A stretch of DNA of 35,744 nt from Candidatus Helarchaeota archaeon (lineage in GTDB: Archaea; Asgardarchaeota; Lokiarchaeia; Helarchaeales; RDOG01). This document shows, in pieces, positions 16,881 to 34,200 of this stretch. The number at the start of each line of letters is the position of its first letter. Position 1 is the first letter of the stretch. The notes under the pieces were generated by a model. The model was not told the DNA's origin. It did no database searches and saw only the letters and a program-made list of their open reading frames with translations. Location: contig JALGVI010000025.1 of assembly GCA_029838215.1 (NCBI GenBank), positions 1 to 35,744 on the forward strand, given 5' to 3'. Made by a program: the position numbers and the translations under genes.

Positions 16881-17279
16881 TCATTTAGCCTTTACGTTTT
16901 CCTGAATGAAGTTCACGATATCGGGAATCATTGACCCGGGACCATAGACATTTGCAGCACCAATCTCCTTCAATGGATCATAGTCTTTTTTAGCAATTGC
17001 GCCACCAACTAGAACGATGACATTATCCTTGATCCCTTTTTCTTTCATGAGATCGATGACACGCTTTGTGTACTTGAGGTGCGCTCCCGAGTGAATGCTC
17101 AGTCCTATCATGTGAACATCCTCTTGGATTGCAGTCTCAACGATCTCTTCAACCGTTTGGAAACCACCAAAGATGACTTCCATTCCTGCATCGCGTAGTC
17201 CTCGTGATACTACTACGATTCCTCGCCAATGACCATCAATTCCGGGTTTAGACATTAGCACTCTGATTTTTTCTGGCAT
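16881..17279 (-). CDS. Cobalamin-binding small subunit of an acyl-CoA mutase
   Basis: KPGIDGHWRG (DxHxxG), IQEDV, SIHSGAH, VLVGGAI. Confidence 0.95.
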   Translation of the reverse strand: MPEKIRVLMSKPGIDGHWRGIVVVSRGLRDAGMEVIFGGFQTVEEIVETAIQEDVHMIGLSIHSGAHLKYTKRVIDLMKEKGIKDNVIVLVGGAIAKKDYDPLKEIGAANVYGPGSMIPDIVNFIQENVKAK

Positions 17280-17297
17280 TTTTTGTACCAGCTCCGT

Positions 17298-18974
17298 TTA
17301 GATTACAATCGGTGGGTCCCACGTGCCCCATACTTCTCGATAGACGTTACATACTTCACCGACAGTTGCGCCTTCTTTAGTTGCGTCCATTACTGTAGGT
17401 AGGACATTTTCGCCCTTTTCACAAGCTCGCCGGAGAGCGTTGAGGCATTCTTCAACCTTCTTATTATCGCGCTTGGCTTTCAACTTGCGAATACGTTCAG
17501 TTTCAATGGCTGCCGCCTTTTCGTTTGTTCGGAACACGTCATCTATGACTTCATCGGCCATGACATATTTATTGACACCAATGACAACCTCGTGTCCAGT
17601 TGCAATGTTTTGCTCTCGTCTGCGGAAAGCATCTCGCATTTCACGGTATATCCAACCGCTTTCAAGGGCTTTTACTACACCACCAGCTTCTGCAAACCGG
17701 TCTAAATATTTCCAGACACGATCTTCAATTTCATCAGTAAGCCACTCAACGTAATAAGAACCGGCAAGTGGATCAATGGTGTTTCCAATTCTGGTTTCTT
17801 CTTGAATGAGCTGCTGGGTTCGCAACGCAAGCATTACGGCGGGTTCACTGACAAGACAATATGCTTCATCGTAACCGTTTGTGTGCATTGATTGACATCC
17901 GCCAAGTGCAGCCGCTAATGCTTGGTAAGCGGTACGGACGGCGTTGTTCAGGGGTTGTTGAGCAGTAAGAGAGCTTCCAGCAGTTTGGATGTGGAATCTG
18001 AAACCCCAATTTCTTGGGTTTGTTGAGCCATACTTATCTCTGATAAGTTTCATCCAAATTCGACGAGCTGCCCGATATTTAGCGATTTCTTCGAAGAAAT
18101 CTTTTGCTGCAGATAAATGAAATGCAAGTCTTCCTACAAAATCATCGATCTTATAACCGCGTCTTATCAATTCTTCAATGTGTTCGATGGCATTCGCAAA
18201 ACCAAAGCCGAGCTCTTGAATTGCGTCAATCCCGCCTTCACGATAATTATAAGTCGTAAAGTTGATGGGATGCCATTTTGGAACATTCTTTTGCGCTACA
18301 GTCCACTCAATTAGATCGCAGGCGAGTTTTAAGAGATACGGGGGTGCACAATTCTTGTAGCACGTGTACCCAATGGTTTGAGTCAGAATGTCATTCTGAC
18401 ACGTCCCCATGACATTTGAAAGATCTAATCCCTTATTTTTCACCATGTTAAAATACATCGCACAAATTGGTGCTGATGAAAAAGGTTCGACAACAAGTGC
18501 AACGCTTATTTTTTCAATGGGTAGACCTTCAGTCAAGGCATATAAGCTATCAATGCAATACAAAGGTACTCCAGAAGTACCGACTTCAGCATCACCTCTG
18601 GGATCATCAGGATCAATGCCATTAAAAGTCAAGGCATCTACCGCTGCGCTAAATCCAGTCTCACCTTCCTTGTAGAGCATGTGCCATCTTTGATTGGTCT
18701 CTTCGGGTGTTCCAAAACCAGAAAAGAGCCGAATGGTCCAGAATCTCGTGCGATACATCGTGGGATAAGGTCCCCGTGCAAATGGTTCTTGTCCGGGAAA
18801 TCCAGCATCTCTCAAGTAATCGTGATTCTTAATGTCCACTGGGGTATATAGCGGCTTCACCTTGATGCCAGAATCAGTCTCGAAATGATAATCGCGCTGT
18901 TTCATCTTCGCTATTTTCTCGAGCCATTCTTTTTCTTTTTCTTCAATTTCCTTTATCTTTTGTTGATCAAACAT
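17298..18974 (-). CDS. Acyl-CoA mutase large (substrate-binding) subunit, MCM/ICM family, with atypical specificity residues
   Basis: FPGQEPFARGPYPTMY, WTIRLFSGFG, QNDIL, FFEEIAKYRAARRIW, HIQTAGSSLTAQQP, DPLAGSYYVE, GVNKY. ATG 18974 preferred over the ORF-track start at 19031. Confidence 0.95.
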   Translation of the reverse strand: MFDQQKIKEIEEKEKEWLEKIAKMKQRDYHFETDSGIKVKPLYTPVDIKNHDYLRDAGFPGQEPFARGPYPTMYRTRFWTIRLFSGFGTPEETNQRWHMLYKEGETGFSAAVDALTFNGIDPDDPRGDAEVGTSGVPLYCIDSLYALTEGLPIEKISVALVVEPFSSAPICAMYFNMVKNKGLDLSNVMGTCQNDILTQTIGYTCYKNCAPPYLLKLACDLIEWTVAQKNVPKWHPINFTTYNYREGGIDAIQELGFGFANAIEHIEELIRRGYKIDDFVGRLAFHLSAAKDFFEEIAKYRAARRIWMKLIRDKYGSTNPRNWGFRFHIQTAGSSLTAQQPLNNAVRTAYQALAAALGGCQSMHTNGYDEAYCLVSEPAVMLALRTQQLIQEETRIGNTIDPLAGSYYVEWLTDEIEDRVWKYLDRFAEAGGVVKALESGWIYREMRDAFRRREQNIATGHEVVIGVNKYVMADEVIDDVFRTNEKAAAIETERIRKLKAKRDNKKVEECLNALRRACEKGENVLPTVMDATKEGATVGEVCNVYREVWGTWDPPIVI

Positions 18975-19365
18975 GATAATCAAGCCAAAAACATTAGTCA
19001 TGAATAATATCAAAGGAAACAAGAGTTCCAAATTGTGTAATTATACCAAGATTACATTTTTTAAAGTTTTCAATTATCACAAATGTTTCAAATTCGTGGT
19101 CGAAATCTGTTGAGAAACATCCAAGTTTTGAAGAGTTGGCACTAAAAAGATAAAAATCCTTTAGATTCTGAAAGAATGGACTGGAGCATTTAACGGACAT
19201 GTTCAGCATGAATGAAAGGGACTTGTCTTGCAATTAAAGTGTCAAGATTTCTTCAAATTACGAAACATTTAATTAAAAATTCTCAATTGGATTTTCAGAA
19301 TTTCCCTTCAAGGGAAAACATTTAAGATAAGAACTAGTGCGATCGGAACTATTCGAGGTTTAAGA

Positions 19366-20346
19366 ATGAGTGGAAAGAAGCCAGATTTAGAAGAGCTCAT
19401 AAAACAATTCAAAGAAGGTAAAAAATTAGCTCTTTCACGCTTAATCACATTGGTTGAAAATGATCCCATCCTTGCTAAGGAAATTTTCAAGCATTTTAAT
19501 AATTTGTTGGAAAAGGCCTATGTCGTTGGCATAACAGGTCCTCCGGGTGCGGGAAAAAGCACTTTGGTTGACATCATGGCAAAAAAAATCGTTGAAAAAG
19601 GAAAATCTGTTGGCATCATATCCGTGGACCCAACATCGCCATTTTCCGGTGGAGCATTTTTAGGCGACCGAATACGCATGAAACATTCAGTTGCAAGTGA
19701 CCCAAACGTGTTCATGCGAAGTATTGCTTCGCGTGGTGTTTCTGGAGGGCTTTCCAGAGCAATATTTGACATCACGTTATTATTTGAAGCATACGGTAAG
19801 GATATCATAATCATAGAAACAGTTGGAGCGGGTCAATCGGAAGTGGATATCTTTGAAATGGCTTACACTACAATAGTCGTAAGCGTTCCGGGGTTGGGCG
19901 ACCAGATACAGGTTCAAAAAGCAGGCATCATTGAAATCGCAGACATTTTAGTCGTGAATAAAAAGGACCTCGGTGGAGAAGATGTTGCAGTGGCATTAGA
20001 CCTGATGTTAGATGACGTATTTTCATATGGAATGGGACAGGGGTGGCGCCCACCCGTAGTAATGACCAATGGCATTACGGGAGAAGGTGTCGACCTGTTA
20101 ATCGAAGAAATCTTTAACCACAAGCGCCATATCGAACTTACCGACATCCTTGAAAAGAAAAAGAGACACAAGATCAAGAAGAAGATACACGACATCATCC
20201 TTACCACGATCGAAGATTACATAAATAAGAACATAATTAATGAAGAAAAACTTGAAGAAGTCCTAAAAAGAATCGAGAAAAAAGAAGTGGGAATGTTTGA
20301 GGCGGCATATGATATTTTTGATGAATATCTTGAGAAATTAAAATAG
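19366..20346 (+). CDS. meaB: MeaB/ArgK/MMAA GTPase chaperone of B12 mutases
   Basis: ITGPPGAGKST, VDPTSPFSGGAFLGDRIRM, ETVGAGQSE, NKKD. Confidence 0.97.
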   Translation: MSGKKPDLEELIKQFKEGKKLALSRLITLVENDPILAKEIFKHFNNLLEKAYVVGITGPPGAGKSTLVDIMAKKIVEKGKSVGIISVDPTSPFSGGAFLGDRIRMKHSVASDPNVFMRSIASRGVSGGLSRAIFDITLLFEAYGKDIIIIETVGAGQSEVDIFEMAYTTIVVSVPGLGDQIQVQKAGIIEIADILVVNKKDLGGEDVAVALDLMLDDVFSYGMGQGWRPPVVMTNGITGEGVDLLIEEIFNHKRHIELTDILEKKKRHKIKKKIHDIILTTIEDYINKNIINEEKLEEVLKRIEKKEVGMFEAAYDIFDEYLEKLK

Positions 20347-20385
20347 GGGGGATAAAAAATATCAAGAATAAGGCTTAAAAAAGGC

Positions 20386-20895
20386 ATGGTTCAAGTCTAT
20401 TACGGAAGAGGAAAAGGTAAAACCACGGCGGCTCTGGGACAGGCTTTTCGTGCCTGCGGACATGGTTTTAGAGTTTACATGATTCAGTGGATGAAAGGCA
20501 ATATTAAGTACGGAGAGCTTAAATCGGTTCAAAAGTTCGATAATTTCACGATCGAGCAGTTTGGACGCAAGGATCTCATTGCAGAACCCGAAGAGATAGA
20601 TATCGTTGAAGGTAAGAAGGCTCTTGATCGTGCTCGTGAAATCATCAATAGCGATGAGTATGATATCGTTATTTTAGATGAAGTTGGAGTTGCAATTGGA
20701 ATGGGCATCATAAACGTGGATGATGTCATCGAAATAGTAAAGAATCGTCCTGAAAAAGTCGAAGTCATAATGACTGGTGGTCCAGAAACGCACCCGAAGT
20801 TGCTACAGCTGGCAGACCTCGTCACGAACATGCGAGTCATCAAGCATTACTATGCCGCCCAAGGAATCGATGCACGGTTCGGAATAGAATTTTAA
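20386..20895 (+). CDS. cobO: ATP:cob(I)alamin adenosyltransferase (CobA/CobO/BtuR type)
   Basis: YYGRGKGKTTAALG, QWMKG, ILDE, EVIMTGG, KHYY...GIEF. Confidence 0.93.
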   Translation: MVQVYYGRGKGKTTAALGQAFRACGHGFRVYMIQWMKGNIKYGELKSVQKFDNFTIEQFGRKDLIAEPEEIDIVEGKKALDRAREIINSDEYDIVILDEVGVAIGMGIINVDDVIEIVKNRPEKVEVIMTGGPETHPKLLQLADLVTNMRVIKHYYAAQGIDARFGIEF

Positions 20896-21036: not shown

Positions 21037-21465
21037 ATGTTCATGGTAAAAGTAGGTGATTATGAACTTCCTGACGACCTGTATTACACGGATAAGCATA
21101 CTTGGGCGAAAGTCGAAGGAGATAACGTCCGAGTTGGTGTAGATGCCATTGGCGTGGCACTAGCCGGCAAGATCATCTTCGTTCGCGTTAAAAAAGTAGG
21201 GAAAGAAGTGAAAGCAGGCAAGAATTTCGGGACTGGTGAAGCAGGAAAGGGGGTCATTCCTTTGGTTGCTCCAGTTACAGGAGAGATTGTCGAAACAAAT
21301 CCAAAAGCAGGCGGGCGAGAAGTAAAAGCCGTGAATGAAGATCCTTACGGAGAAGGCTGGCTTGCAGTGATCAAGCCGACAGGGGATAAGGATTCTGAAC
21401 TCGGTGCACTAAAACACGGCGACAACGTTGTAGCATGGGCAGAAGAAGAAATCAAGCAAATTTAA
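21037..21465 (+). CDS. GcvH/LbpA-like lipoyl-carrier protein 1
   Basis: YTDKHTWAKV, VRVG, lipoyl motif GEAGKG (Lys71 at 21247-21249), APVTGEIVE, DPYGEGWL. The true start may be ATG 21043. Confidence 0.92.
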   Translation: MFMVKVGDYELPDDLYYTDKHTWAKVEGDNVRVGVDAIGVALAGKIIFVRVKKVGKEVKAGKNFGTGEAGKGVIPLVAPVTGEIVETNPKAGGREVKAVNEDPYGEGWLAVIKPTGDKDSELGALKHGDNVVAWAEEEIKQI

Positions 21466-21585
21466 TTTTTTTCTCGCCCATTTATTTATTTTAGGACTAG
21501 TTTTTGAGAAGTACAACCAAAGTCCCATCATGCTTTATAAATAAAAAAACCTTGTAATCTTGAAAATCTACTGCAAGAAGGATGC

Positions 21586-22059
21586 ATGATAACCATGCCA
21601 GCGATTGATGGATATGACTTCCCCGAAGACGTGTTGATAAATGAACACAACTTATGGACGAAGCCGGCTCCTGACGGAGAGAATTATGCAATAGGAATCA
21701 CGGATTTTGCGCAACAGAATTTAGATAGCATTACCTTTGTAGAAATAGTTCTCGAAGAAGGTGAGCAGGCAAAATATAATCGACCCTTCGGTGCGCTTTT
21801 GGCTAGCGGCAAGGGATCGATCACGTTATACAGTCCATTAACGGGTGAAATAGTGGAAATAAATGAACGATTAGATGACGAACCTGCCTTGATCAAGCAG
21901 GATTGTTATGGTGAAGGTTGGATAATGAAAATAAAACCATCAAAGATCGAAGAGGAAACCGACAAGTTAATGGCGCCGGGTTCAGAACATTTTAAAACAT
22001 GGCAATTAAAAGAAATTGAACGTGTAAAAAAAATAAATGAAGAGTTAAAAAACAAGTAG
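21586..22059 (+). CDS. GcvH/LbpA-like lipoyl-carrier protein 2
   Basis: IGITDFAQ, LASGKG (Lys76 at 21811-21813), SPLTGEIVEIN, DCYGEGWIMKIK. Confidence 0.9.
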   Translation: MITMPAIDGYDFPEDVLINEHNLWTKPAPDGENYAIGITDFAQQNLDSITFVEIVLEEGEQAKYNRPFGALLASGKGSITLYSPLTGEIVEINERLDDEPALIKQDCYGEGWIMKIKPSKIEEETDKLMAPGSEHFKTWQLKEIERVKKINEELKNK

Positions 22060-22077
22060 AACTAGGAGGTTAAATGA

Positions 22078-22980
22078 ATCTCTTATGTACTTTTTCTAGG
22101 ATGCACTACGCCCGTTCGGGCTTTAAATTACGAAGTATCATTACGAAAATTGCTTGCTTTTTTTAACATTTCCTTGATCGATACAGATGAATTCACGTGT
22201 TGTGCACCTTCTTTTATTTCTACAATAAATCCAAAGACGGCTCTTCATGTTGGTGCAAGAAATCTGGCTGTAGCAGAAAAAATTAATGCCACGATCATCA
22301 CGCCTTGCTCGGGTTGTTTCAAATCGTTGAAAGAAGTCCAAGATGAGTTGAGTAAGGATCCAAGTAAAGTCAACATGATAAATGACTTTCTTTCAAAAAC
22401 AGGAAAAAGGTATGAAGGAAAAGTCAAGGTCAAGCACGTGATGGAAGTAATAATGGATGATATAGGGATCGAAACCATAAAAAAGCGCGCTAAACATTCA
22501 CTTCGAGGATTAAAAATTGCACCTTATTATGGATGTCACTTGATACGCCCATCCAACATTTCCCAGTTTGATGACCCGGAGATTCCGAGAAGTCTGGATT
22601 CCATTATCGAAAAGTTTGAAGGCACCAGTCTTGATTATGAAGGCAAGTTGGACTGCTGTGGTGGCCCATTAAAAACCATTAATGACGAAATTAGCCTTGA
22701 ATTATTAGACATTAAATTGAAAAGCTTGAAAAAAAAATCGGTTGATGCCGTGATTCTTGCATGTCCCTTTTGCTTTTTCCAATTTGAGTTTGGACAAAAA
22801 GAAATTTTAAAAGAAAGAGGCGTTAAATATGACATCCCAATTCTTACGGTCACGGAAATGTTGGGTTTGCTATTGGGACTGGAACCCAAGGAGTTGGGAT
22901 TCGGTCTCCACATTGTCAAGACTAAATCATTTTTATCAAAATTTCAAGAAATGAATGGAAAAGAGGGGGAAGGAAAATAG
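22078..22980 (+). CDS. hdrB: Heterodisulfide reductase subunit B (copy 1); 5' end extended beyond the ORF track, start codon anomalous
   Basis: The frame is open from ATC 22078 and encodes SYVLFLGCTTPVRALNYE, the first CCG-domain Cys. It then shows CCAP, PCSGC, YYGCH, CCGG and CPFC, so two CCG domains; about 300 aa. Confidence 0.92.
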   Translation: MSYVLFLGCTTPVRALNYEVSLRKLLAFFNISLIDTDEFTCCAPSFISTINPKTALHVGARNLAVAEKINATIITPCSGCFKSLKEVQDELSKDPSKVNMINDFLSKTGKRYEGKVKVKHVMEVIMDDIGIETIKKRAKHSLRGLKIAPYYGCHLIRPSNISQFDDPEIPRSLDSIIEKFEGTSLDYEGKLDCCGGPLKTINDEISLELLDIKLKSLKKKSVDAVILACPFCFFQFEFGQKEILKERGVKYDIPILTVTEMLGLLLGLEPKELGFGLHIVKTKSFLSKFQEMNGKEGEGK

Positions 22981-22981
22981 G

Positions 22982-23536
22982 ATGACGACTCCAAAAGAGG
23001 TCGTAAATTACGATGAATTAGATTCAAGTTTCATCATCGAGTTAAAAAAAATGGTTGGAGATGAAATCCTTGCTTGTTTTCAATGTGGAATGTGCACGGC
23101 AGGATGTCCTTCAGCACCATTCGGTTACAACATTCGCCAAATCTTGAAATTAGCCATTTGGGGATTTAGGAATGAATTGCTCGAAAGCGATTTCATTTGG
23201 TTCTGCACGGAATGTGGAAAATGTGCAGAACGTTGCACCCAAAACATTGAGCCATATAAAATCATTTTAGGAATACAAAGATTAGCTGCAAGACAAGGCA
23301 ATATCCCTCTTACGGTATTGCATCGCATTAAGCAGTTCATGAAGAGCGGTCGCGTCGTAGAGGTTGATGAACTCACGGAGCTGAAACGTGAGAGATATGA
23401 ATTACCAAAATGTGATAAAGAATTGCCGGAAAGTGTGATGAGAGAACTTGAAGCGATTTTGGATATGACAGAATTTCGAAAATCCTATAAAGACCGAGTA
23501 TCGAACAAAGATTCAGGAGATCGAAATCAAGAATGA
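22982..23536 (+). CDS. hdrC: Heterodisulfide reductase subunit C (copy 1)
   Basis: CFQCGMCTAGCP and IWFCTECGKCAERCTQ. The ATG is 1 nt after the hdrB stop, and there is an ATGA overlap with hdrA. Confidence 0.93.
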   Translation: MTTPKEVVNYDELDSSFIIELKKMVGDEILACFQCGMCTAGCPSAPFGYNIRQILKLAIWGFRNELLESDFIWFCTECGKCAERCTQNIEPYKIILGIQRLAARQGNIPLTVLHRIKQFMKSGRVVEVDELTELKRERYELPKCDKELPESVMRELEAILDMTEFRKSYKDRVSNKDSGDRNQE

Positions 23537-25482
23537 CGAGTTCAGATCAACCCAAAATCGGCGTTTTTATTTGTCATTGCGGAACCAACATCGCAGGCGT
23601 GATCGATGTAAAAAGAATCGTGAATGAACTACAACGGGCAGATAATATTCATGTCGTGAGACATTATGAGTTCATGTGTTCAGAGCATGGTCAAGAGCTC
23701 ATTAAAAAGGCAATTGAGAAACAGAAGATCAACCGAATCGTCGTGGCCTGTTGCAGCCCCAAATTCCACGAAAAGACATTTCAAAGATGCTTGGCTGCAG
23801 GTGGTATCAATCCTTTCTTTGTAGAAATCGCGAACATAAGAGAGCAATGTTCTTGGGTTCATAAGAGCAAACCTAATGAAGCAACTGAAAAAGCAATTAA
23901 AATAATAAAGGGAGCCGTTGGAAAAGCATTACATCTGAAACCCATTGAAGTCATTACAGTACCCATTATTCGTGAAGTAGTTGTTATTGGTGGCGGGATT
24001 GCAGGAATACAGGCGGCTCTCGATATAGCAGATACAGGAACCAAGGTCCATATTATCGAAAAATACGTGAGCCTGGGAGGCAACATGGCTCGCACGGAAA
24101 AAACATTTCCGACAAATGATTGCGCCATGTGCATTCTCTCCCCAAAGCTCAACGATGTACGAAGTCATGACAACATCACGATTCATACAATGTCTGAAGT
24201 GAAAAAAGTAGATGGCTTTCTCGGCAATTTTGTGGTCACCGTTGAAAAGAATCCGCGGTTTGTCGATGAAAAAAAATGCATTAATTGTGGAAGATGCATT
24301 GAAATCTGCCCAGTTGAAGTCCTCGATGAATGGCAATTAAACATGGGATTTCGGAAGGCAATTCACGTGCCATTTGCCCAAGCACTCCCTTCCTGTCCCG
24401 CCATCGATGAAAAAAATTGCACGAAATGCGGTAAATGTGAAGAGAAGTGCCCTACAAACGCGATAAACTTGAAGGAGACCAAACAAACCATTACATTAAG
24501 AGTTGGAGCGATCATTACAAGCATTGGTTGGGAAGAATGGGATCCGTCGCCAATAGTACAGTATAGATACGGACAAAATAAAAACGTGATAACTCAATTT
24601 CAATTCGCAAGATTATTGGATCCATTTGGTCCCACTGATGGAAAAATTCTGACTGCAGAAGGAAAATCGGTAAAAAGAATCGTCATGATTCAATGCGTTG
24701 GATCTAGAGATAAACGATATAACCAGTATTGCAGCACGGTATGTTGCATGGCAGCTTTGAAACACGCTCAATTAGCAAAGATGGAACATGATTCAGAAAT
24801 AGATGTCATAATCTGCCATCAAGAAATGAGAACACCAAAAAAACGACATGAACAATATTTTACGAATGCAAGAGAAATCGGAGTTAAATTCATCCGTGGA
24901 AGACCTTCAGAGGTTTTAGAAGATCCCGACTCGGATCAGTTGATTGTCAGGGTTGAGGATGAAGAACTACAGAAATTATTTTCAATCAAGACTGATTTGG
25001 TCGTGTTATCTACTGCTACTGTTGCGTCAAAAGATACGGAGAAACTCGCACGCATATTAGGTATCGATGTTGATGCCGAGGGGTTTGTGGCAGAGTTGCA
25101 CCCAAAATTAGCTCCTGTAGAAACAAAGGTTGCAGGAATTTTCGTTTGCGGTGCCTTACAAGGTCCAAAAGATATCCCTGATTCGGTTGCTCAAGGAGGA
25201 GCGGCTGCCGCCAAGGTAATCGCAACGTTCAGTAATCCTGTTATAAAGAAAAATCTTGAAATTCCCGAAATAAATCAAGACCTTTGTGTTCTTTGCGGTA
25301 CCTGTGTTGAATCGTGCAACTTTTCGGCATTAACAAAACACGATAAGCTAAAAAAAATCGTAGTTCACGCACTGAAATGCGTTGGATGTGGCATGTGCAT
25401 GCAGGCATGTCCTACAGGAGCATGTCAATTAAAAACATATCGGGATGATCAACTTCATGACCAAATCCAACAAATAATCTAA
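23533..25482 (+). CDS. hdrA: Heterodisulfide reductase subunit A, methanogen-type full-length (649 aa)
   Basis: GVFICHCGTNIAG, ACCSP, NIREQCSWVH, IGGGIAG, KTFPTNDCAMC, inserted 2x[4Fe-4S] domain, QCVGSRD...CSTVCCMAALK, C-terminal 2x[4Fe-4S] domain. Confidence 0.97.
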   Translation: MTSSDQPKIGVFICHCGTNIAGVIDVKRIVNELQRADNIHVVRHYEFMCSEHGQELIKKAIEKQKINRIVVACCSPKFHEKTFQRCLAAGGINPFFVEIANIREQCSWVHKSKPNEATEKAIKIIKGAVGKALHLKPIEVITVPIIREVVVIGGGIAGIQAALDIADTGTKVHIIEKYVSLGGNMARTEKTFPTNDCAMCILSPKLNDVRSHDNITIHTMSEVKKVDGFLGNFVVTVEKNPRFVDEKKCINCGRCIEICPVEVLDEWQLNMGFRKAIHVPFAQALPSCPAIDEKNCTKCGKCEEKCPTNAINLKETKQTITLRVGAIITSIGWEEWDPSPIVQYRYGQNKNVITQFQFARLLDPFGPTDGKILTAEGKSVKRIVMIQCVGSRDKRYNQYCSTVCCMAALKHAQLAKMEHDSEIDVIICHQEMRTPKKRHEQYFTNAREIGVKFIRGRPSEVLEDPDSDQLIVRVEDEELQKLFSIKTDLVVLSTATVASKDTEKLARILGIDVDAEGFVAELHPKLAPVETKVAGIFVCGALQGPKDIPDSVAQGGAAAAKVIATFSNPVIKKNLEIPEINQDLCVLCGTCVESCNFSALTKHDKLKKIVVHALKCVGCGMCMQACPTGACQLKTYRDDQLHDQIQQII

Positions 25483-25931
25483 ACTTCAGGGTTTTCTGGT
25501 ATTCGTTCTCTAATTTTCTTCTCCAATTTTCCGAGTTGGTATATTTTCTTCGTGAATTCACTTGCGACTTTGACCCACTCTCGAGCCATGCTTGCACTGA
25601 TAAAATGCATTTCAATTCGAGCGGGGCTGATGCCAATCTCTTTAAAGATATCCTGCACGAATTTTACGAGTTGTTCTGCACGATAATTACCACCAGAGTT
25701 ATTTCCCGTTTCATAATGACATTGATCTTTTAAACATCCACTAATAATTACACCATCTGCTCCCGACACGAATGCTTCTAAAATAAGGGGCAAATCCACC
25801 CGTCCAGTGCAAGGCACTCTTACTATTTTAATATTAGTAGGATATTCAAAACGGCTCATACCAGCTAAGTCTGCTGCCGCATAAGTGCATTCATTACAAA
25901 TCAATGCAAGGATGTTTATTTCATTCGACAT
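25479..25931 (-). CDS. mvhD: MvhD/FlpD [2Fe-2S] subunit
   Basis: CNECTYAAADLAG, RVPCTGRV, GADGVIISGC...CHY. ATG 25931 preferred over 25973. Confidence 0.95.
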   Translation of the reverse strand: MSNEINILALICNECTYAAADLAGMSRFEYPTNIKIVRVPCTGRVDLPLILEAFVSGADGVIISGCLKDQCHYETGNNSGGNYRAEQLVKFVQDIFKEIGISPARIEMHFISASMAREWVKVASEFTKKIYQLGKLEKKIRERIPENPEV

Positions 25932-26156
25932 GGTAATCAAAGCTGGTCTTCTCGATGATTTGGAAAAAAACATTTAAAAGCTAAGTTACACTATTCCAAA
26001 CAATCAGATTAAAATTTCCTATCTAAAAAAAATACGATGAAAATCTATTTTTCAAGGTCTTTTAGTCTGTTAGGGTGAAATCACGCCCATTACAAAATAA
26101 AAAGAATTAAAAAAAAGGAAAAAATAAGCATAAGGAAAGATTCAAGAGTTGTTTTT

Positions 26157-26648
26157 ATGGAAGAAACCTTAGAATTTTCTGTTGTATCAGAACTTGGTCC
26201 GAGAATGAAAAATATTAATGTAAAAGCGAAATGTGAGAGCATCAATGAGGTTCGAGAGGTCACGTCCCGTGGTGATGGAAGCACTCACCGCGTAACTGAA
26301 GCGGTCATTGGGGATGAAACCGGATCGATTTTACTTACGATTTGGGATGACACGATCGATCGTATTACGATTGGAAATTCATACGTCGTTAAAAATAGTT
26401 ACACGTCTCTCTTTCGAGGATCTTTACGGTTAAATCTCGGTCGTTATGGCGAACTTGAAGATTCAGATGAAGAAATCGAAACAGTCAATACCGAGAATAA
26501 TTTATCTGATAAAGTATATGAAAGTCCACGTAGATTTCAAAGAGGACCGAGACCTGGAGGCAGTTATGGTCGAGATCGACGAGATAGAGGACCTCCAAGA
26601 TACCAACGGAGAAATCCCCGTGGAAGAAGCAGAGGTAGTAGATACTAA
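26157..26648 (+). CDS. ssb: Single-OB-fold single-stranded DNA-binding protein with an Arg/Gly-rich tail
   Basis: VTEAVIGDETGSILLTIWD, YTSLFRGSLRLNLGRYG; low-complexity R/G/P tail. Confidence 0.9.
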   Translation: MEETLEFSVVSELGPRMKNINVKAKCESINEVREVTSRGDGSTHRVTEAVIGDETGSILLTIWDDTIDRITIGNSYVVKNSYTSLFRGSLRLNLGRYGELEDSDEEIETVNTENNLSDKVYESPRRFQRGPRPGGSYGRDRRDRGPPRYQRRNPRGRSRGSRY

Positions 26649-26721: not shown

Positions 26722-27606
26722 TTAGGCAATTTTTGCCAATAGTGGGTTCAGTTTCACCCTATGGAACTTCACACCCAATTCTTTAGGTTTTTCACCAAAT
26801 GCAAGTGCTAAATACTCGGCAAAATATAAAACAGGTATCTTGTAATCAGCACCTTCGAATTGCTTGTTGACTTTTGATTGACCCATTTCAAATTGGGAAT
26901 AACAAGCGGGACAAATGACAACGAGTGCATCGGCATTCATGCGTTTTATTTGTTTAAGTTTTGATTCAAGCATGCTCAACTGTGCACTTTCAACTATCCC
27001 AGAAATTGCAGAACCACAACACTGATATTTCTTGAGATATTCAATGCTTTTAGCACCTGTTGCGGTTATGACCTTATCAAGAGACGTGGGTCTTATGGGA
27101 TCATCAAAGTTCAAGATATAACTAGGGCGACCATAATGACAACCATAAAAAGTTGCAATCCTGAGACCCGACATGTCTTTTGAAGAAGCTTCCGTGATTT
27201 TTTCCATTCCGATGTCTTCATGCAAGAGTTCCAAGAGATGTTTGACTTCTATCGTGCCCTTATATTCCTTGCCAACTTTTGAAAGAATCTCATTGACTTC
27301 TTCAAGTTTCTGTCCATCGTGCCGTAATTCGTGCCAAGCCGTCTTGAGCGTTTCAAAGCATCCATTGCACATTGTGAGAATGTCCATCTCTTTTTCTTCA
27401 GCAATGCACAGATTGTAGGCTGCAGAAGCAAGCCACGTGCTCTCCCGAATATTATGCATTCCCACGGGATCCGGACAACATCCGAAATCAGGAACGTCCT
27501 TGTATTTTATATCTAATTTATCCATCACTTTTCGACCGGCAATTTCAACATAGGGGAAACGATTTGCAATCAAACAGCCGACAAATAAGGCATATTCATC
27601 GCTCAT
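26722..27606 (-). CDS. hdrB: Heterodisulfide reductase subunit B (copy 2)
   Basis: FVGC, GCCPDP, MCNGC, FYGCH, CCGS, CPAC; all 10 CCG-domain Cys present. Confidence 0.95.
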   Translation of the reverse strand: MSDEYALFVGCLIANRFPYVEIAGRKVMDKLDIKYKDVPDFGCCPDPVGMHNIRESTWLASAAYNLCIAEEKEMDILTMCNGCFETLKTAWHELRHDGQKLEEVNEILSKVGKEYKGTIEVKHLLELLHEDIGMEKITEASSKDMSGLRIATFYGCHYGRPSYILNFDDPIRPTSLDKVITATGAKSIEYLKKYQCCGSAISGIVESAQLSMLESKLKQIKRMNADALVVICPACYSQFEMGQSKVNKQFEGADYKIPVLYFAEYLALAFGEKPKELGVKFHRVKLNPLLAKIA

Positions 27607-28124
27607 TCATTTGCAACCTCCTGACTTGCAGGCTCTTCTTTTTTCTTAATATATTCGACAAATCCCGTTAATTCGCAGATTTTCTTGAAGTCTTCTACGT
27701 TTGGACGCGTGATGTTTTCATCCAGCCCCAGCTGCTTCCGACGCCGAGCAATGGCAGGACTGCTGGGAATATTAAGAGCATTATTGTAAAAGCCTTCACC
27801 TTCAGCACGAAATACCTCAGGCAAATGGCCACGTTCGACAGATAAATTGCGTAATTCAAACATGATTTCGGATACTAAAACAGATTGGGGACAAACTTCT
27901 AAACAGGAATGGCACGTCGTGCAGTTCCATAATACGGGGTCATCTAGTATTTTTTCCTTGAATCCTAAAAGAGCATTTTCAACAATCTTTCGTGGATTGA
28001 AAGTGCGGGTGAATCGCGCCGCAGGACAAATTCCCGTGCACGTGCCACATTGATAACAGTAATTGATAGTCTTCCCAATTTCCGACTCGCTTAATTCCTT
28101 TCGAAATACGCTAGAAATCGTCAT
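27603..28124 (-). CDS. hdrC: Heterodisulfide reductase subunit C (copy 2)
   Basis: CYQCGTCTGICP and LWNCTTCHSCLEVCPQ; ATGA overlap with hdrB copy 2. Confidence 0.95.
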   Translation of the reverse strand: MTISSVFRKELSESEIGKTINYCYQCGTCTGICPAARFTRTFNPRKIVENALLGFKEKILDDPVLWNCTTCHSCLEVCPQSVLVSEIMFELRNLSVERGHLPEVFRAEGEGFYNNALNIPSSPAIARRRKQLGLDENITRPNVEDFKKICELTGFVEYIKKKEEPASQEVANE

Positions 28125-28258: not shown

Positions 28259-31200
28259 TCATTTTTTCTTAGCCTTGCGAAGATAAGAGTTGGCTTGCTC
28301 CGAGAACCTCTTGACTTTTTCAGTATATCCTAACCGAGAAGCAACCCGAGCTGCCTTTTTGTACAACTGTCCAGCCTTGGTATAATTGTTTTTTCTTACT
28401 TCGAATCGAGCATCACCTAAAAGATCGGATAATTGAATTTCCAAGTTCTTACGTTCTAGTTTACTGAGAGGTTTTGTTTCTACAGGGACTTTTTTCTTTG
28501 GCTTCGGTTTCTTTACGGTTTTGATGCTCTTAAGTGCTTTTTTCTTTTCTTTTTCAATGCGTTCTTCAATTAACTTCTGCTCTCTTAATTCTTCTTCCTT
28601 TCGCTGTTCGGATAATTGCTTGATGATTGATTTAACCTTGCTCGCGGGAATTGCGGGTTTTTCCTTCCTGCGAAACTGATATATCATGATAGCACCCGCA
28701 ACAAGGATAATGATGACTCCAAAAATCAGAAATATTTCCCACGGGATATATGGAGGGGGAATTACGGGAGGTCGTGGCGTGACAGTGAGTTGGAAGACAA
28801 AACTCATAGTTTCATCATCAGAGTCAACGAGAACGATTCGAAGAGTCCATTGTCTTGTATTGTAAGATAAATCAGCAAGATCATCTTCGTCAAATTCATA
28901 ATAAATAATAGATGAATTTCCAGTGACCGATGTATTAACTAATTCTTCAAGACCACCATCATTGTCATCAATTTGAATGGAAAATTCTTTTAAGCCTTCA
29001 AGGTCAGAAAAGTTAAGTTGCATTGTCAATGTCATACCCTCATAAAAATCATAATTAGGAGGATAAATCTGGAGTAATGAAATAATTGGGGCATTATTTA
29101 CTACCGTGAAATTATAGGATGTCGTTGTTTCATTAATTCCACCTTCTTCATCTTCAACAGTCACGTAAAATGTCCAGTTTCCAGTTTCATACGTGGTCAG
29201 GGGTGTCCAATCCAGATACCAAGAATTAGAACTCGCGTTGAAATCCATAGAAATGTTATACCATTGGCTATTCTTGTAGCAATAAAGGCTTGCATTTACC
29301 GTGAGATTCGCTCCTCTACTAAATACGTCAATATCACTGGCATTTGCAAGAAAGGTGATATTTTGAGTCCGATACACGCTAGAAGCAGGTTGATAAATTT
29401 CAACGATGTTTGGGACGTGATTCACCACGGTAATGATGGAAGTAGTATTAAAAGTAAGGGCGTCATTCTCACGATCTCTCAAGTAGAGGAATACAAGCCA
29501 AGATCCGGCACGATCAAGAGATGTAAATACATATGAAAATGTCCAGTTAGACGTGTTATACTTTGCACCCCCAACGTCATTCACGAATTTCATTGTTCGA
29601 TTTAACCAGATATCATGTTCGATGTTTAATAATTGAATTTCGGCGTAAACCCCTGTCTTATTATAATTCAATACTTGAATCTGAATGAAATCTACGTATC
29701 CATTAGTTGTAAGGTTAGTCGTATTCAATTGGAAGAAAATCTCAATCCTGTTGTTTTGGACGTTGTTAATTATATCAGTAATTTCGCTACCCGTAAAATT
29801 AACCGTTGTCGTAACGTCAGACGTGCTGTTAAATACAGTTCCATTGATGAGATCGGGCTGATTGGTTGTCCAATTCATGATTTTCCAACCTGCGAAAGTT
29901 ACGTTTGTGGTCTGGCTAATTTTTGCTTGCACGGTCACTTCAATCCCACCAATGCCACTTCGATCGAATCCGTAATTAGTAAGGTTAATGTAATATGGAA
30001 TGGATACAAAACCGCTCGAATCATTTTCAGCATAATGATAAACAGAATCATCGGTGAAAGTGTTTTCATGACGTCCGTAGAAGATGCCAGCCGAGGTCTC
30101 AAGAATAGAGGCGTTTCCATCTATTTGTAAAGAAGTATTAACATCACTTGCAATAAAATCGTCAATATCTTTCAAGGTAGTATTTAATGAAAAAGTCTCG
30201 TTCACGCGATAAACGGTAGTGTTTTCAATCTCGAATGATTCAACTTCTGGAGCCCAATTATCCACATATACATAACCGATATATTTAGCACCGTGGAGAG
30301 CTGTTGAGATGGCAGATTCTCCATATTCATCATAGCTCTGAACCTCAACATAAATGTCATATCGCCCAACGGGGTCGTATTCGGTAAAATTGTAAGAACA
30401 GTTCCACCAACTTTGACTTTTATACCAGTAAGTATTGTAAGGTGAAGAATAGTCTTCGATGTCCATTAACATATCCATTGATTTGTTTATCCAATGGTCC
30501 ATTGTAGCTGATTTCAAACATAAAGTCGCATTAAATTCGTAGTCGTCATTATCACGATATCGATCGTCATCAAGATCAGCAATCACTGCAGTAACATTTA
30601 GTGTTTCATTTATTCGTCGAATGTGCTGATTCTCAGGATTTGTAACTTGAGTATAATTTGTTGCATTATATCGAATATGAATTGCGGTATCAGGATAACT
30701 CCCTCCAGTTTTGACTTCAGGTCTGGCGGATATTAACGTAACATTATGTGAAAATGCTTGTAGGTCATCATAATTTCCTAAACTCTCAACAAATAACCAA
30801 TCATAACGAACTGGACCGAGTTTTGCACCGTCTTCAGTATGAAAACCGGGACCTAGAGTATCAACAGGAGCTTTTATCACGATATTGTATTCTCGACCGC
30901 TAAAATTCTCGGGCAAAAAATCATCCGAAATAGAAGTGTCAGTATAATTATGAATAAAGGTCTGGAATATATATCGGGTACTCGGTTGGAAAACCGTTCC
31001 ATTAATATAAATTCTAAATTTGGTATAAGGATCATTATTCGGATCAATGTAATCATCGATATCCGTAACATTAGCCCAAACTTCAGATCCTGGAGTTGCT
31101 ATGTGATAGTTTTTTCGTCGTAGGTAAGAAAATACGTCATGAAGTAATACTTTATAGTTCCCTGGGATGTACAATTCTTCACCCGCGCTCGGGATTCTCT

Positions 31201-34200
31201 GCTCGGGATCCCCAAACAAGACGAATTGATGATAGTCCTCACTATTATCGGGAAATCCACTTTCCTCTTGGATGTCATTTCTCCAATTTTGTGAATATAC
31301 CCGGGAAGTGGAATTTAATCCTAAGGCAAGACTCATTCCGATAGTATTATTATTTTGGATGGCTTGCTGTAGAAAAATGGAAAATACTTGTTCGGAATAA
31401 CCCAGCATGTTTTCACGATAATTTGCAATGAGTGAAGATGTCCCAAGACTCATGAACGTACTGGGCAAGGTTGTTGCAGCTAAATAATCGTCATTTAACA
31501 GAATGATGCTTACATTTATCCCTTCTGGCGGTGAATCGGAAATGAACTCACTTTCATTTTTAAAGAAACCATTTGAATTATTTACAGGATTGATTAGGAG
31601 TGGATCGTCGGCAGATTTTCCGTCATCAAATCCTCTCCAATAATCAATAGCACCTTCAAGAAAATTCATGGCACCCATTTCGCCATCATTACCATTCGAT
31701 TTCACACCATATCCACAATGATACCATAGAGCAGGTCCCACGCTAAAGTTGTCTAAAATATTATTATAACCAGTCGTATTCCAAACATCATAATTTGCAG
31801 TTGATAAGATCTCCGGAATTTCAGAAGAATAATTATGTTGGCTATTGTCAAATGTCAAGTTATGCCAATAGGATACGGAAGAGAAAAGTGCTCTTTGACG
31901 GGCAAACGGACCTTTATCATAGCTTATGTTGAATTGCACGAAGTCTATACTGGCATTAATATAATCGGTCGAATTAGATGCATTAAAATAAAAATCAATT
32001 TTTATTTGATTTGTCAAATTCCCAACGTAATCAGTAATGTTATAATTTTGAAGCAAGATCACTTCATATTGTTGATCAGAAGTTGAATTAAATATGGAAT
32101 CATTAATGACATCATAGTCATTATTCGTCCAATTCCAAAGTCTAACGCCAGCAAATGTCACGTTTTCAGTTAGATTTGTTTTGGCTTTTAAATGAACCCA
32201 GATCTGGGTTATGTTGTCCTTATTGATGTTGAGATCTCGCGTTCCATTATCAAGGTCAATATAGAAAGGAACGTCTATGTACCCATTCGAGTCATTCAAC
32301 CAAGAATAATAACTCCCATCGTTTTCGTATGTATTCTCGATCGTGCCTTCAATTGGCACTCCTTGACTTGTCTGAATTCCTGCGGCGTGTTCACCAGTCA
32401 AATTCGTGGGAAAATAGATTTCTTTATAATCGGGTGATAATTCACGATAGATAAAAAGAGGAGCAAAGATACTTCGTTGAATTTCTATTGAGTTATTTAC
32501 ACCAGTTTCACCCGGAAATCGACCCACGATGAATTTATCCAGCCCTATTATTGCACGGTCAAGCGTCAGGCGGAGATCAGTCGTGGGAGATACGATGATC
32601 ACGGTTCGATTCTTTACATCAGGGTTTGCCTTATCAAGATTACTCATCCAAGATTCGAAAGTGGTCGACAGATTGACCATGTCTTCATATAAAGGAGCCG
32701 GACCCGAGAAGGGATATTGAAAGTACGTTGTATTAAGCAATTGATAATTCTGATATGCTTGTTGATACACGGTATTTGATTCATTGACACAAGGTAATAC
32801 TACACCACCATGATATGCAGCCAAGAATGCAGCAGGAGCGAAATGACCATCCTCCAAGGATGATAGAATAACATCATGTTCACTGCTGAGATTATAGATG
32901 AATTCAATTATCGATGTCATGTTTTCTAATGCTGTTATTGTAGTAAGGTTCCAAGATTCTAATGATTGAGTGAAAATAGTCTGATTGATGGTGTTTCCGG
33001 GTTCTACGAATATTGCTTCATCGGGTTGCAATTTCTCAATCACTTGTTGGACCATTTCGGAAGGAATGGAAGAATCATTCACGTATAAAATTGGAACGTG
33101 TAACAAGGATGCTATCACCGCTGCATTCGACGCAGAAAGTGCAACATCTTCTTTTATGGATGAGAGATTTGTTTTAGTTACCGTGATGTTGTAAGAAAAA
33201 CTGTTCGTTTCCAGTTCTTTTGACGTGATATATAAATTCCATTGCCCCTTTAAAGGATGTTCAACACTAATGCTTCCACCATCATTCGAACGTTCTACTA
33301 ACTGTCCATTTGGATCCAATAACCAAACCTGACAGCGGCTATCGTTAACACTAAATTGTAATCTAATATTTGAATTGTCAATGTTAAATTGATGCGAAGC
33401 ACCGCTTGAATTGAAAAAAGTCAGATTATAATATTCAATTCCAGAAAATGCCGTTTTATTATAGACCTTTAACAGCCAATCGGAGCTATTGGCAGGATGC
33501 GTCACGTTGGGAAAGAACACGTAATCATTTGATGTAAAATTATTTGTATCAAACACCCATTGCGAAGCAACGGTCTGTGAGCCATTTCCAATAAGTTCTA
33601 AGCCAAATAAATCATTTTGCGTGTTATTTATTCGCATGAACAAGAATTCCCCTTGAATTGTCATGTTACTGGAGTTATATTGCTGCAAAGTAGACCCCGA
33701 ACTGTCAAGGCTTCCAAGGATATTCTGTGTTTCAAAAGGATTAACAGTTCCCGAAAATGATAACGTTTCATTTGCGCCATCACTAAGACTTTCATTACCA
33801 AATGCGACAATTATTTTTGAATTATTGAACCAAAAATAATCTGCAATTGATGCTGACAGGTCGAAAATGTTTTCAACAGAAAAATTCAAGGGAGCAAGTT
33901 CATCACCTGCGATATAAGAATAATTAAGGGCAGGTTCAATTTCATTTCGAACATTATTTGGAACATCACCAACATACAGGATTCGTTTCAAACCACCATC
34001 TCTAATTGTGGCGGAACCCCTCCGATCTTCCATGAAATAATTGTTATAACGTCTCCAGTCATCAAGTAATAGGCGTGTACTCTCATCTAAACAATCATAT
34101 ATAATTGGAGAAATCTTAAAAATTCCAGAATCGTTAAAAATCGCATTAGGAAGAATGCTCAGGTAAGCCAATTCATCAAAAAAACTCGAATCATTTTGAT

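Follow-up and report, generated by a model that had tools for sequence, protein, structure and literature searches.

The contig JALGVI010000025.1 of a Candidatus Helarchaeota archaeon (assembly GCA_029838215.1), analysed here over its 35,744 nucleotides (positions 1 to 35,744, the window in what follows), carries two genes for small proteins of the glycine cleavage H family, H1 and H2, which are followed on the same strand by the genes hdrB1, hdrC1 and hdrA of a heterodisulfide reductase (Hdr). As contig C62, the window belongs to a metagenome-assembled genome (MAG) of 3.62 Mb and 170 contigs, with a completeness of 94.3% and a contamination of 6.2%. A functional link between the H-type proteins and Hdr is well supported by the results described below. 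These results also suggest a more specific reading, namely, that H1 and H2 may be lipoyl carriers of the LbpA type that work with the adjacent HdrABC/MvhD proteins and with a nearby HdrB2C2 pair, a lipoyl (di)sulfide being the substrate of HdrB; as a whole, we consider this reading evenly balanced between being right and being wrong. LbpA proteins have been established only together with the sHdr complex of sulfur oxidisers (PMC6067878, PMC10332631, PMC11094781), and no paper tying LbpA to Asgard archaea was found in the literature searched, except for the remark that the lipoyl synthases LipS1/S2 are common there.

Lysine motif, fold and phylogeny of H1 and H2

Both H1 (142 aa, 21037-21465, plus strand) and H2 (157 aa, 21586-22059, plus strand, or 154 aa if translation starts at 21595) are strongly matched by PF01597 (100.6 bits, E 7e-29, and 94.4 bits, E 6e-27, respectively). 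The lipoyl lysine, which was invariant across the H-protein alignments built, is K71 in H1 (motif GEAGKGVIPL) and K76 in H2 (motif ASGKGSITL), and the G-K-G context that a preliminary description of this DNA had reported for both proteins is therefore correct. H1 contains no Cys residues, and H2 contains one internal Cys and a long C-terminal helix. With the NCBIfam cut-offs for GcvH being 115.85 bits (TIGR00527) and 117 bits (NF002270), H1 scored 84.0 and 109.5 bits and H2 scored 92.0 and 94.2 bits, respectively, so that both proteins fall under both thresholds, while the third H-family protein of this genome, H3, encoded on contig C5, clears NF002270 at 121.5 bits and has the canonical motif VESTKAVSD. 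H3 (C5:12855-13286) is an orphan canonical GcvH, its gene adjoining a MetE-like (Meth_synt_2) gene in a genome in which no gene for the P or T protein was found; the occurrence of gcvH near methyltransferase genes has been mentioned in an Asgard paper.

The AlphaFold model of H2 (mean predicted local distance difference test score 92.6) has the H-protein fold, with the Lys76 hairpin located between strands 67-73 and 77-82 and with a helix at residues 134-155; its comparison with GcvH crystal structures gave target-normalised TM-scores of 0.83-0.92 and root-mean-square deviations of 1.2-2.4 Å. Orthologues of H1 with 62-74% identity were detected in the same order, and orthologues of H2 were seen only in Helarchaeota-labelled MAGs; a metagenome scan with H2 revealed no close H2 orthologue, the best match reaching 48%.

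A total of 115 H-family proteins were pooled from 301 species genomes of Asgard archaea, in which the best H2-like matches were taken, and from 80 loci obtained when 185,579 species genomes were scanned with an alignment of the H1 type. The lysine motif splits these proteins into two classes: a canonical class with the motif E-[SA]-x-K-[AST]-x-S-[DE], and an LbpA-like class in which the lipoyl Lys is preceded by Gly and followed by Trp or Gly. The true LbpA1 and LbpA2 proteins of one Thioalkalivibrio and one Burkholderiales genome, which have the motif E-S-G-K-W, fall into the LbpA-like class, and their loci (L096 and L106) display the textbook sHdr layout, followed by LipS1, the lipoate-protein ligase LplA and LipS2. 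In a maximum-likelihood tree obtained by a quick search over 141 columns, one branch with a Shimodaira-Hasegawa approximate likelihood ratio (SH-aLRT) support of 98 parts the 60 canonical rows, including H3, from the 55 LbpA-like rows, including H1, H2 and LbpA1/2. The phylogeny envisaged in the preliminary description thus puts H1 and H2 outside the canonical clade, but the approximately unbiased (AU) test does not reject a position of the Helarchaeales H1/H2 group beside that clade (p 0.30), and the LbpA-like placement accordingly draws on a single SH-aLRT branch of this quickly searched tree, on the motif and on the gene context. The deep nodes of the H/LbpA tree were likewise unresolved in the study of Cao et al. 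(PMC6067878). According to the same authors, bacterial LbpAs carry two conserved Cys residues, N- and C-terminal, which some archaeal LbpAs lack; the bacterial LbpAs encoded in L096 and L106 contain four to five Cys residues each, and the conserved pair is not present in H1 or H2. On balance, the lysine motif, the sub-threshold GcvH scores and the position outside the canonical clade support, at the level of sequence, the assignment of H1 and H2 as LbpA-like proteins rather than canonical GcvH.

Recurrent linkage of LbpA-like genes with hdr

The loci of this sample had been picked by their similarity to H1/H2, independently of their neighbours, and the presence of hdr genes was scored by tblastn of the window's Hdr proteins against the locus flanks. 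An hdr or mvhD gene was located within 10 kb of 37 of the 55 LbpA-like genes (within 3 kb for 28 of them) and of none of the 60 canonical genes; lipoylation genes were found near 18 LbpA-like genes and near one canonical gene. As a baseline, the share of the present Hdr-rich genome that is within 0.5 kb of hdr or mvhD is 2.6%, rising to 5.6% within 3 kb and to 11.5% within 10 kb.

The arrangements are diverse. One Asgard family (L056, L059, L062) has hdrA-mvhD-H-hdrC-hdrB on a single strand, another (L066, L071) has hdrC-hdrB-hdrA-mvhD with a convergent H gene, and a third (L075) has H-LplA-hdrC-hdrB. Beyond these families, a Desulfomonilaceae MAG (L105) has hdrA-mvhD-hdrC-hdrB-H, a Myxococcota MAG (L080) has hdrB-H, and a Methanomethylicia MAG (L100) has H-LipS1-H-hdrB-hdrC. 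These differences in gene order among the lineages argue against the simple inheritance of one block.

Within the family of the present archaeon, the closest relative (L011) retains H2-hdrB1-hdrC1-hdrA together with mvhD, ssb and hdrB2-hdrC2. Three members at a greater distance (L009, L010, L012) carry a divergent H1/H2 pair beside hdrB2-hdrC2 and a giant open reading frame (ORF), and they are devoid of the hdrB1C1A-mvhD-ssb block. Orthologues of hdrB2 (68% identity) adjoin H1/H2 in these three loci, and hdrC2 is syntenic in L009-L012; this layout marks HdrB2C2 as the conserved family-level neighbour of H1/H2.

Two further groups of H-family genes were observed in the course of this survey. 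The genomes of the Asgard family represented by L056-L065 (G020, G031, G041, G050, G058) contain five to nine H-family genes each, with at least three LbpA-like subtypes (ESGKW, DS[AS]KGTN, DSWKGS), several of which lie inside hdr clusters where HdrA is split into three ORFs. Additionally, a large and tight subfamily with the motif KIQSRKWIGKL (L083, L187-L245), which probably corresponds to the NCBIfam entry 'GcvH_rel_desulf', is nearly always followed by genes for LplA and a LipS2 of the type encoded on contig C1 of the present genome, and no hdr gene was seen in its available flanks.

Coupling of H2 with hdrBCA and the start of hdrB1

The genes H1, H2, hdrB1, hdrC1 and hdrA are all located on the plus strand, with the coordinates and gene calls that had been given for them initially. 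The TAG stop codon of H2 (22057-22059) is separated by 18 nt from position 22078, where the conserved N-terminus of HdrB begins, and the Shine-Dalgarno (SD) sequence GGAGGT, read from the sequence at 22065-22070 of the plus strand, lies in this gap, as had been noted. Downstream, the stop codon of hdrB1 (22978-22980) is either overlapped by hdrC1, if the latter starts at 22955, or located 1 nt from the more likely hdrC1 start at 22982; the hdrC1 orthologue in L011 aligns from residue 9 onward. The hdrC1 stop and the hdrA start overlap in the ATGA at 23533-23536, so that the coupling of hdrB, hdrC and hdrA had been recognised correctly. Upstream, H1 and H2 are spaced by 120 nt, with a T-run 3' of H1 and a TATA-like box 5' of H2 (both read from the sequence); these features indicate that H1 is probably a transcription unit of its own, separate from H2-hdrB1C1A, which likely form an operon.

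The beginning of hdrB1 is unusual. The ATG at 22074, located behind the SD sequence, is out of the HdrB frame, where a TGA at 22075 is followed by the ATC at 22078, 7 nt behind the SD sequence. The first canonical start codon in this frame is TTG at 22150, and its use would lose the first cluster Cys. The 68%-identical relative L011 has the identical SD sequence, followed by 7 nt and ATC (1810-1850), likewise without a canonical start. Initiation of hdrB1 at the non-AUG codon ATC is likely and provides the simplest reading of this region; gene callers shorten the L011 hdrB1 to 201 aa. The production of an H2-HdrB1 fusion by stop-codon read-through was also considered, since the two genes share one reading frame both in the window and in L011, and it was ruled out by the three in-frame stops between them in the window.

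A methanogen-type Hdr with an altered substrate pocket

The 649-aa HdrA (23533-25482, plus strand) is a full-length flavo-iron-sulfur subunit of the bifurcating type, which scores 749 bits with the NCBIfam HdrA2 model and whose residues 6-646 align with methanogen HdrA structures (9SFI/5ODC) at 644 bits, while the structure of the short sHdrA from Hyphomicrobium (6TJR) covers only residues 327-563 at 104 bits. The preliminary description was thus right about a full-length HdrA but had combined it with MvhD, which is encoded by a separate gene on the opposite strand (164 aa, 25479-25973, minus strand; PF02662, 150 bits). The mvhD and hdrA genes are convergent with a 4-nt overlap, and the protein scores 102-120 bits against the MvhD chains in structures of Hdr-Mvh. 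The hdrC1 gene (22955 or, more likely, 22982 to 23536, plus strand) encodes a 4Fe-4S dicluster subunit (Fer4_8/9; TIGR03290, 97.8 bits). Approximately 1 kb beyond the hdrBCA/mvhD block, a second hdrC-hdrB pair is located on the minus strand (26722-28124), consisting of hdrB2 (294 aa, 26722-27606) and hdrC2 (173 aa, 27603-28124; Fer4 families; TIGR03290, 116.5 bits).

HdrB1 (300 aa, 22078-22980, plus strand, probably ATC-initiated) contains two PF02754 domains, and HdrB2 also matches this family; each has two complete CCG motifs. Both align end to end with chain 5ODC_B (209 bits for HdrB1 and 253 bits for HdrB2), and all ten CCG Cys residues are present in both and invariant in eleven H-linked or related HdrBs, which bears out the initial view of a canonical methanogen-type HdrB. 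Judged by homology, this Hdr is of the methanogen type, with a full-length HdrA, HdrC, MvhD and a two-CCG HdrB.

The residues around the presumed substrate differ from those of methanogens. In the structure 5ODR, coenzyme M (CoM) and coenzyme B (CoB) are contacted by the backbone NH groups of Gly46 and Gly198 and by Arg201, Arg14, Arg240 and Phe233 (PMC13261682, 2026). Arg14 is kept in the HdrBs of the window, and the position of Gly46 is occupied by Ser or Val. In HdrB1, the positions of Arg201 and Arg240 are occupied by Lys and Phe, respectively, and the loop after the second CCG is two residues shorter; in HdrB2, Ile, Ala and Met occupy the positions of Arg201, Phe233 and Arg240. The full CoM/CoB residue set is kept by none of the HdrB paralogues of this genome. 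Hence, the Hdr of the window looks catalytically competent and, by these substitutions, not tuned to CoB. A complex prediction from HdrB1-versus-H2 alignments gave a score of 0.00; as it was run without controls, it speaks neither for nor against binding.

Glycine cleavage, lipoylation and redox genes in the genome

Among the window ORFs of at least 100 aa, there is no P, T or L gene of the glycine cleavage system (GCS), no 2-oxoacid dehydrogenase gene and no mcr gene, as the preliminary description had stated; L-like dihydrolipoyl dehydrogenases do exist elsewhere in the genome. Searches of the 94.3%-complete genome revealed no GDC-P (PF02347), GCV_T (PF01571) or Biotin_lipoyl domains, and neither mcrA nor ComA, which acts in CoM synthesis, was found there. 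GDC-P was detected in none of seven genomes belonging to the order and in 45 of 54 genomes from elsewhere in the class, which indicates a lineage-wide absence and not an assembly gap. Within these searches, no other task for H1 and H2 emerged. The 283-aa product of C165:51057-51908 was considered as an E2 component and rejected: it has no lipoyl domain, and its weak 2-oxoacid_dh match is far under the E2 cut-offs. This gene adjoins one for a ferredoxin-domain protein.

At the same time, the genome is well provided with lipoylation genes, comprising two LipS1/LipS2 sets and four LplA-like ligases. A LipS2-LplA-LipS1 cluster is located at C46:9727-12506, its LipS2 and LipS1 passing the NCBIfam cut-offs, and a second set, LipS2-LipS1-LplA, is located at C1:70945-73901; the two additional LplA-like ligases, each of 332 aa, are encoded at C33:5654-6652 and C74:8125-9123. 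By best-hit similarity, the nearest counterparts of the C1 synthases lie beside sHdr-lbpA in L096/L106, those of the C33 and C74 ligases lie beside LbpA-like genes of other lineages, and those of the C46 set form a Bathyarchaeum cluster that adjoins a gene for canonical GcvH. In a genome of the same family (G302), a ligase of the C74 type (58% identity) adjoins a third LbpA-like gene, with hdrC-hdrB-hdrA located approximately 2.2 kb away on the other strand. The C1 set and the C33 and C74 ligases are candidate dedicated lipoylation genes for H1 and H2.

Two proteins pass the equivalog cut-offs for dihydrolipoyl dehydrogenase (TIGR01350 for the one on C92). The C92 gene (12691-14166) shares its strand with a large hdr array, upstream of which it lies at a distance of 1.6 kb, and the C98 gene (L025:5322-6758) lies in an oxidative-stress cluster together with genes for a flavodiiron protein, NADH:rubredoxin oxidoreductase (NROR), a DsrE-like protein, desulfoferrodoxin and OsmC. 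On C2, a gene for a related MerA-like disulfide reductase (L024:6514-7914) abuts a gene for a fused HdrA-MvhD of 790 aa. Altogether, three class-I pyridine-nucleotide disulfide oxidoreductases were observed, two of them (C92 and C2) within 3 kb of hdrA.

The hdr genes are expanded on contigs C2, C10, C12, C39, C92, C110, C135, C144, C146 and C164, with many HdrAs split into two or three ORFs and many accompanied by their own MvhD. The sole large subunit of a NiFe-hydrogenase (C49) is not encoded beside mvhD or hdr.

Proposed role of the lipoyl carriers and alternative explanations

If H1 and H2 are lipoylated at K71 and K76, the dithiolane of the lipoyl-lysine, or sulfur held on the lipoyl arm, could present a protein-bound (di)sulfide to the two noncubane [4Fe-4S] clusters of HdrB, in the role held by CoM-S-S-CoB in methanogens. 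This would involve a direct contact between the H protein and HdrB, with the lipoyl arm entering the HdrB site. Electrons would be relayed by HdrC between HdrB and HdrA, at whose FAD bifurcation or confurcation with ferredoxin would take place, and MvhD would provide the link to a third redox partner. The dihydrolipoyl/lipoyl couple could be tied to NAD(H) through the dihydrolipoyl dehydrogenases of the genome. Either the dithiolane disulfide or lipoate-bound sulfur may be the reacting species, and the direction of electron flow, like this chemistry, is inferred.

The lipoamide couple has a low potential, about -290 mV, which would make it a poor 'high-potential' acceptor for bifurcation. In view of this potential, we speculate that a confurcating or NAD(H)-ferredoxin balancing device is more plausible than a strongly exergonic terminal reductase.

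In addition to this energetic difficulty and to the result of the AU test given above, several observations weigh against lipoyl carriers as partners of HdrB. In L009, L010 and L012, the two H genes have divergent orientations and converge with hdrB2, and they are consequently neighbours of the latter and not members of one operon. The H1 orthologues of two sister families (L163-L165) have no hdr gene within 10 kb, and in a second, non-independent sample, taken from metagenomes and dominated by the KIQSRKW subfamily, hdr was located near 3 of 34 LbpA-like genes, with LplA/LipS2 near 23. The linkage of gcvH with hdrB, proposed for a survey in the preliminary description, thus recurs in other Asgard families and in anaerobic bacteria, but it is not universal. 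The H-adjacent HdrBs of two Asgard families retain the complete CoM/CoB residue set. Finally, the genome encodes approximately 20 HdrA-like and approximately 8 full-length HdrB proteins, most of them without a nearby H gene; against these numbers, the earlier expectation that such proteins would explain what Hdr does in this archaeon does not simply hold for two or three of them.

Some of these observations would fit an adjacency without enzyme-substrate meaning, an explanation that we consider unlikely. In this case, H1 and H2 would have some other lipoyl role, for example, as reductants of OsmC/Ohr peroxidases via dihydrolipoyl dehydrogenase or as a lipoyl relay, and Hdr would use a low-molecular-weight disulfide or polysulfide. 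The location of the C98 dihydrolipoyl dehydrogenase gene in the same oxidative-stress cluster as OsmC is in its favour, as are the abundance of hdr genes, which leaves 11.5% of the genome within 10 kb of one, the sister-family H1 orthologues lacking hdr neighbours, and the complete CoM/CoB-type pocket in the H-adjacent HdrBs of the two Asgard families just mentioned. It is at variance with the proportions of 37 of 55 against 0 of 60, which include, in another Asgard family, an H gene inserted directly between mvhD and hdrC and, in two bacterial phyla, an H gene adjoining hdrB, and with the 18-nt gap between H2 and hdrB1, whose shared SD context is kept in L011.

A sulfur-trafficking variant, which we regard as rather improbable, would have H1 and H2 offer sulfane sulfur, carried on the lipoate arm as a persulfide or a mixed species, to HdrB; the module would serve sulfur or polysulfide metabolism and would not be a simple redox shuttle between lipoyl dithiol and disulfide. 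The Gly-Lys signature and the side of the tree that H1 and H2 have in common with true LbpA1/2 point in this direction, and so does the C1 set of LipS1/S2, which is most like the set beside sHdr-lbpA. Moreover, sHdr has two HdrB and two HdrC subunits, as are encoded in the window, and the genome contains four genes for TusA, among them one at a distance of 300 nt from the LbpA-type ligase gene on C74, as well as one DsrE-like gene; apart from TusA, nothing sulfur-specific was found in the surroundings of this ligase gene. However, sHdr-LbpA clusters have been described as always accompanied by DsrE, TusA or rhodanese genes (PMC11094781), and no such genes were found in the window or in the related Asgard loci inspected. 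Furthermore, HdrA is of the 649-aa bifurcating type and not a short sHdrA, the two conserved Cys residues of bacterial LbpA are missing from H1 (no Cys) and H2 (one Cys), and the host looks like an anaerobe with a CODH/ACS-linked (carbon monoxide dehydrogenase and acetyl-CoA synthase), Hdr-rich metabolism.

That H1 and H2 are ordinary GCS H proteins for a GCS encoded elsewhere is very improbable: their strong PF01597 matches, their likeness to solved GcvH structures and the position beside the canonical clade allowed by the AU test stand against a genome in which no GDC-P or GCV_T was found, an order with GDC-P in none of its seven genomes, sub-cut-off NCBIfam GcvH scores where a canonical third copy exists, and a Lys motif departing from the canonical one.

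Returning to the proposed role of H1 and H2 as lipoyl carriers for HdrB, a wider form of it may be put forward tentatively, and we think it more doubtful than plausible. LbpA-type lipoyl proteins could be the missing heterodisulfide partner of the bifurcating HdrABC-MvhD in Asgard archaea and in other non-methanogenic anaerobes, such as those represented by the Desulfomonilaceae, Myxococcota and Methanomethylicia MAGs, together forming an NAD(H)-lipoyl-ferredoxin (con)furcation module, and the sHdr-LbpA system of aerobes could have branched off, as a derived form, from this older pairing of anaerobes. In Asgard archaea and many other non-methanogens, the genes for soluble HdrABC rank among the energy genes of highest abundance and strongest expression, and Asgard papers still write of an 'unidentified heterodisulfide' (PMC11291895). 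The present finding offers a specific, clonable protein candidate for the Hdr disulfide, an LbpA-like lipoyl carrier, which comes with ligases, synthases, dihydrolipoyl dehydrogenases and a sequence signature (Gly before Lys, Trp or Gly after) and is thereby testable. If true, the only non-canonical role known for lipoate, in sulfur oxidation with sHdr-LbpA, would be extended to the energy metabolism of strict anaerobes, and models of syntrophy in Asgard archaea would be affected.

Other genes of the window

Immediately upstream of H1, a complete set for adenosylcobalamin-dependent methylmalonyl-CoA mutase (16881-20895) was identified, consisting of genes for the small and large mutase subunits (16881-19031, minus strand), MeaB (19366-20346) and an ATP:corrinoid adenosyltransferase (20386-20895). 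This neighbourhood is not kept in the relatives, which have CdhC or other genes in its place; the link to acyl-CoA catabolism drawn in the preliminary description rests on these neighbours and was not sustained. An Ssb-like OB-fold (oligonucleotide/oligosaccharide-binding fold) gene (26157-26648, plus strand) is located between mvhD and hdrB2, and it occupies the same position in L011 with 79% identity. The ORF located directly downstream of hdrC2 (28259-34471, minus strand) has 2070 aa and no significant Pfam family; it is kept at this place, with 35-55% identity, in every family member examined, and a further ORF of approximately 3480 aa follows its homologue in L009 and L010.

Comparison with known systems

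The MvhAGD-HdrABC complex of hydrogenotrophic methanogens (PDB 5ODC) is similar to the system of the window in that HdrA, HdrB, HdrC and MvhD align end to end and all of the HdrB cluster Cys residues are present. In contrast, no mvhA or mvhG is located nearby, searches of the genome revealed neither mcrA nor ComA, the Arg240 and Arg201 positions of HdrB are substituted with a two-residue loop deletion after the second CCG, and lipoyl-carrier genes are attached. HdrA2B2C2 of Methanosarcina acetivorans (NF040770), which provides the best NCBIfam model for the HdrA of the window (749 bits), is likewise a soluble bifurcating Hdr independent of the Mvh hydrogenase; unlike the separate mvhD of the window, its HdrA2 carries a C-terminal MvhD fusion, as does the 790-aa copy on C2, and its substrate is CoM-S-S-CoB.

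A close counterpart in terms of the lipoyl carriers is the sHdr-LbpA system of Hyphomicrobium denitrificans, Thioalkalivibrio, Aquifex and Sulfolobales (PMC6067878). Common to both are GcvH-like single-domain lipoate-binding proteins, usually two, encoded beside hdrB/hdrC, two HdrB and two HdrC subunits, the Gly before the lipoyl Lys, and dedicated LplA and LipS1/LipS2 in the genome. The two differ in several points: the HdrA of the window is a 649-aa protein of the methanogen type with a separate MvhD, whereas sHdrA has approximately 340 aa; the cluster lacks the hyp gene and genes for DsrE, TusA or rhodanese, and its gene order departs from that of type I (shdrC1B1AHC2B2); H1 and H2 have Gly after the Lys where LbpA has Trp, and they do not possess the conserved LbpA Cys residues. 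Moreover, the hosts of sHdr-LbpA are aerobic or microaerobic sulfur oxidisers, in contrast to the anaerobic Asgard archaeon considered here.

A protein-bound substrate for a subunit of this kind has a parallel in sulfate reducers. In their DsrK-DsrC system, a CCG-domain (HdrD/HdrB-like) subunit acts on a protein-bound sulfur species and not on a small heterodisulfide. This system differs from the present one in that it resides in the membrane as a complex and acts on a Cys trisulfide of DsrC; it contains neither lipoate nor HdrA.

The idea put forward here is also not without precedent, although the preliminary description knew of no characterised system with such an architecture. In the Culexarchaeia (bioRxiv 10.1101/2022.04.06.487207), a GcvH gene located in an Ehe hydrogenase/HdrA2B2C2 cluster was suggested, as a prediction only, to encode a possible disulfide carrier for HdrB. 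Both cases concern a non-methanogenic archaeon, that of the Culexarchaeia lacking CoM/CoB synthesis, and a GcvH gene inside an Hdr cluster, but the Culexarchaeia belong to a different phylum, the context there is that of a membrane hydrogenase, and the paper includes neither a distinction between LbpA-like and canonical proteins nor a survey. The idea of an H-type protein as the disulfide carrier of Hdr has thus already been voiced and its chemistry is, here too, a proposal, while its reach, from several Asgard families to anaerobic bacteria, is broader than had been seen initially.

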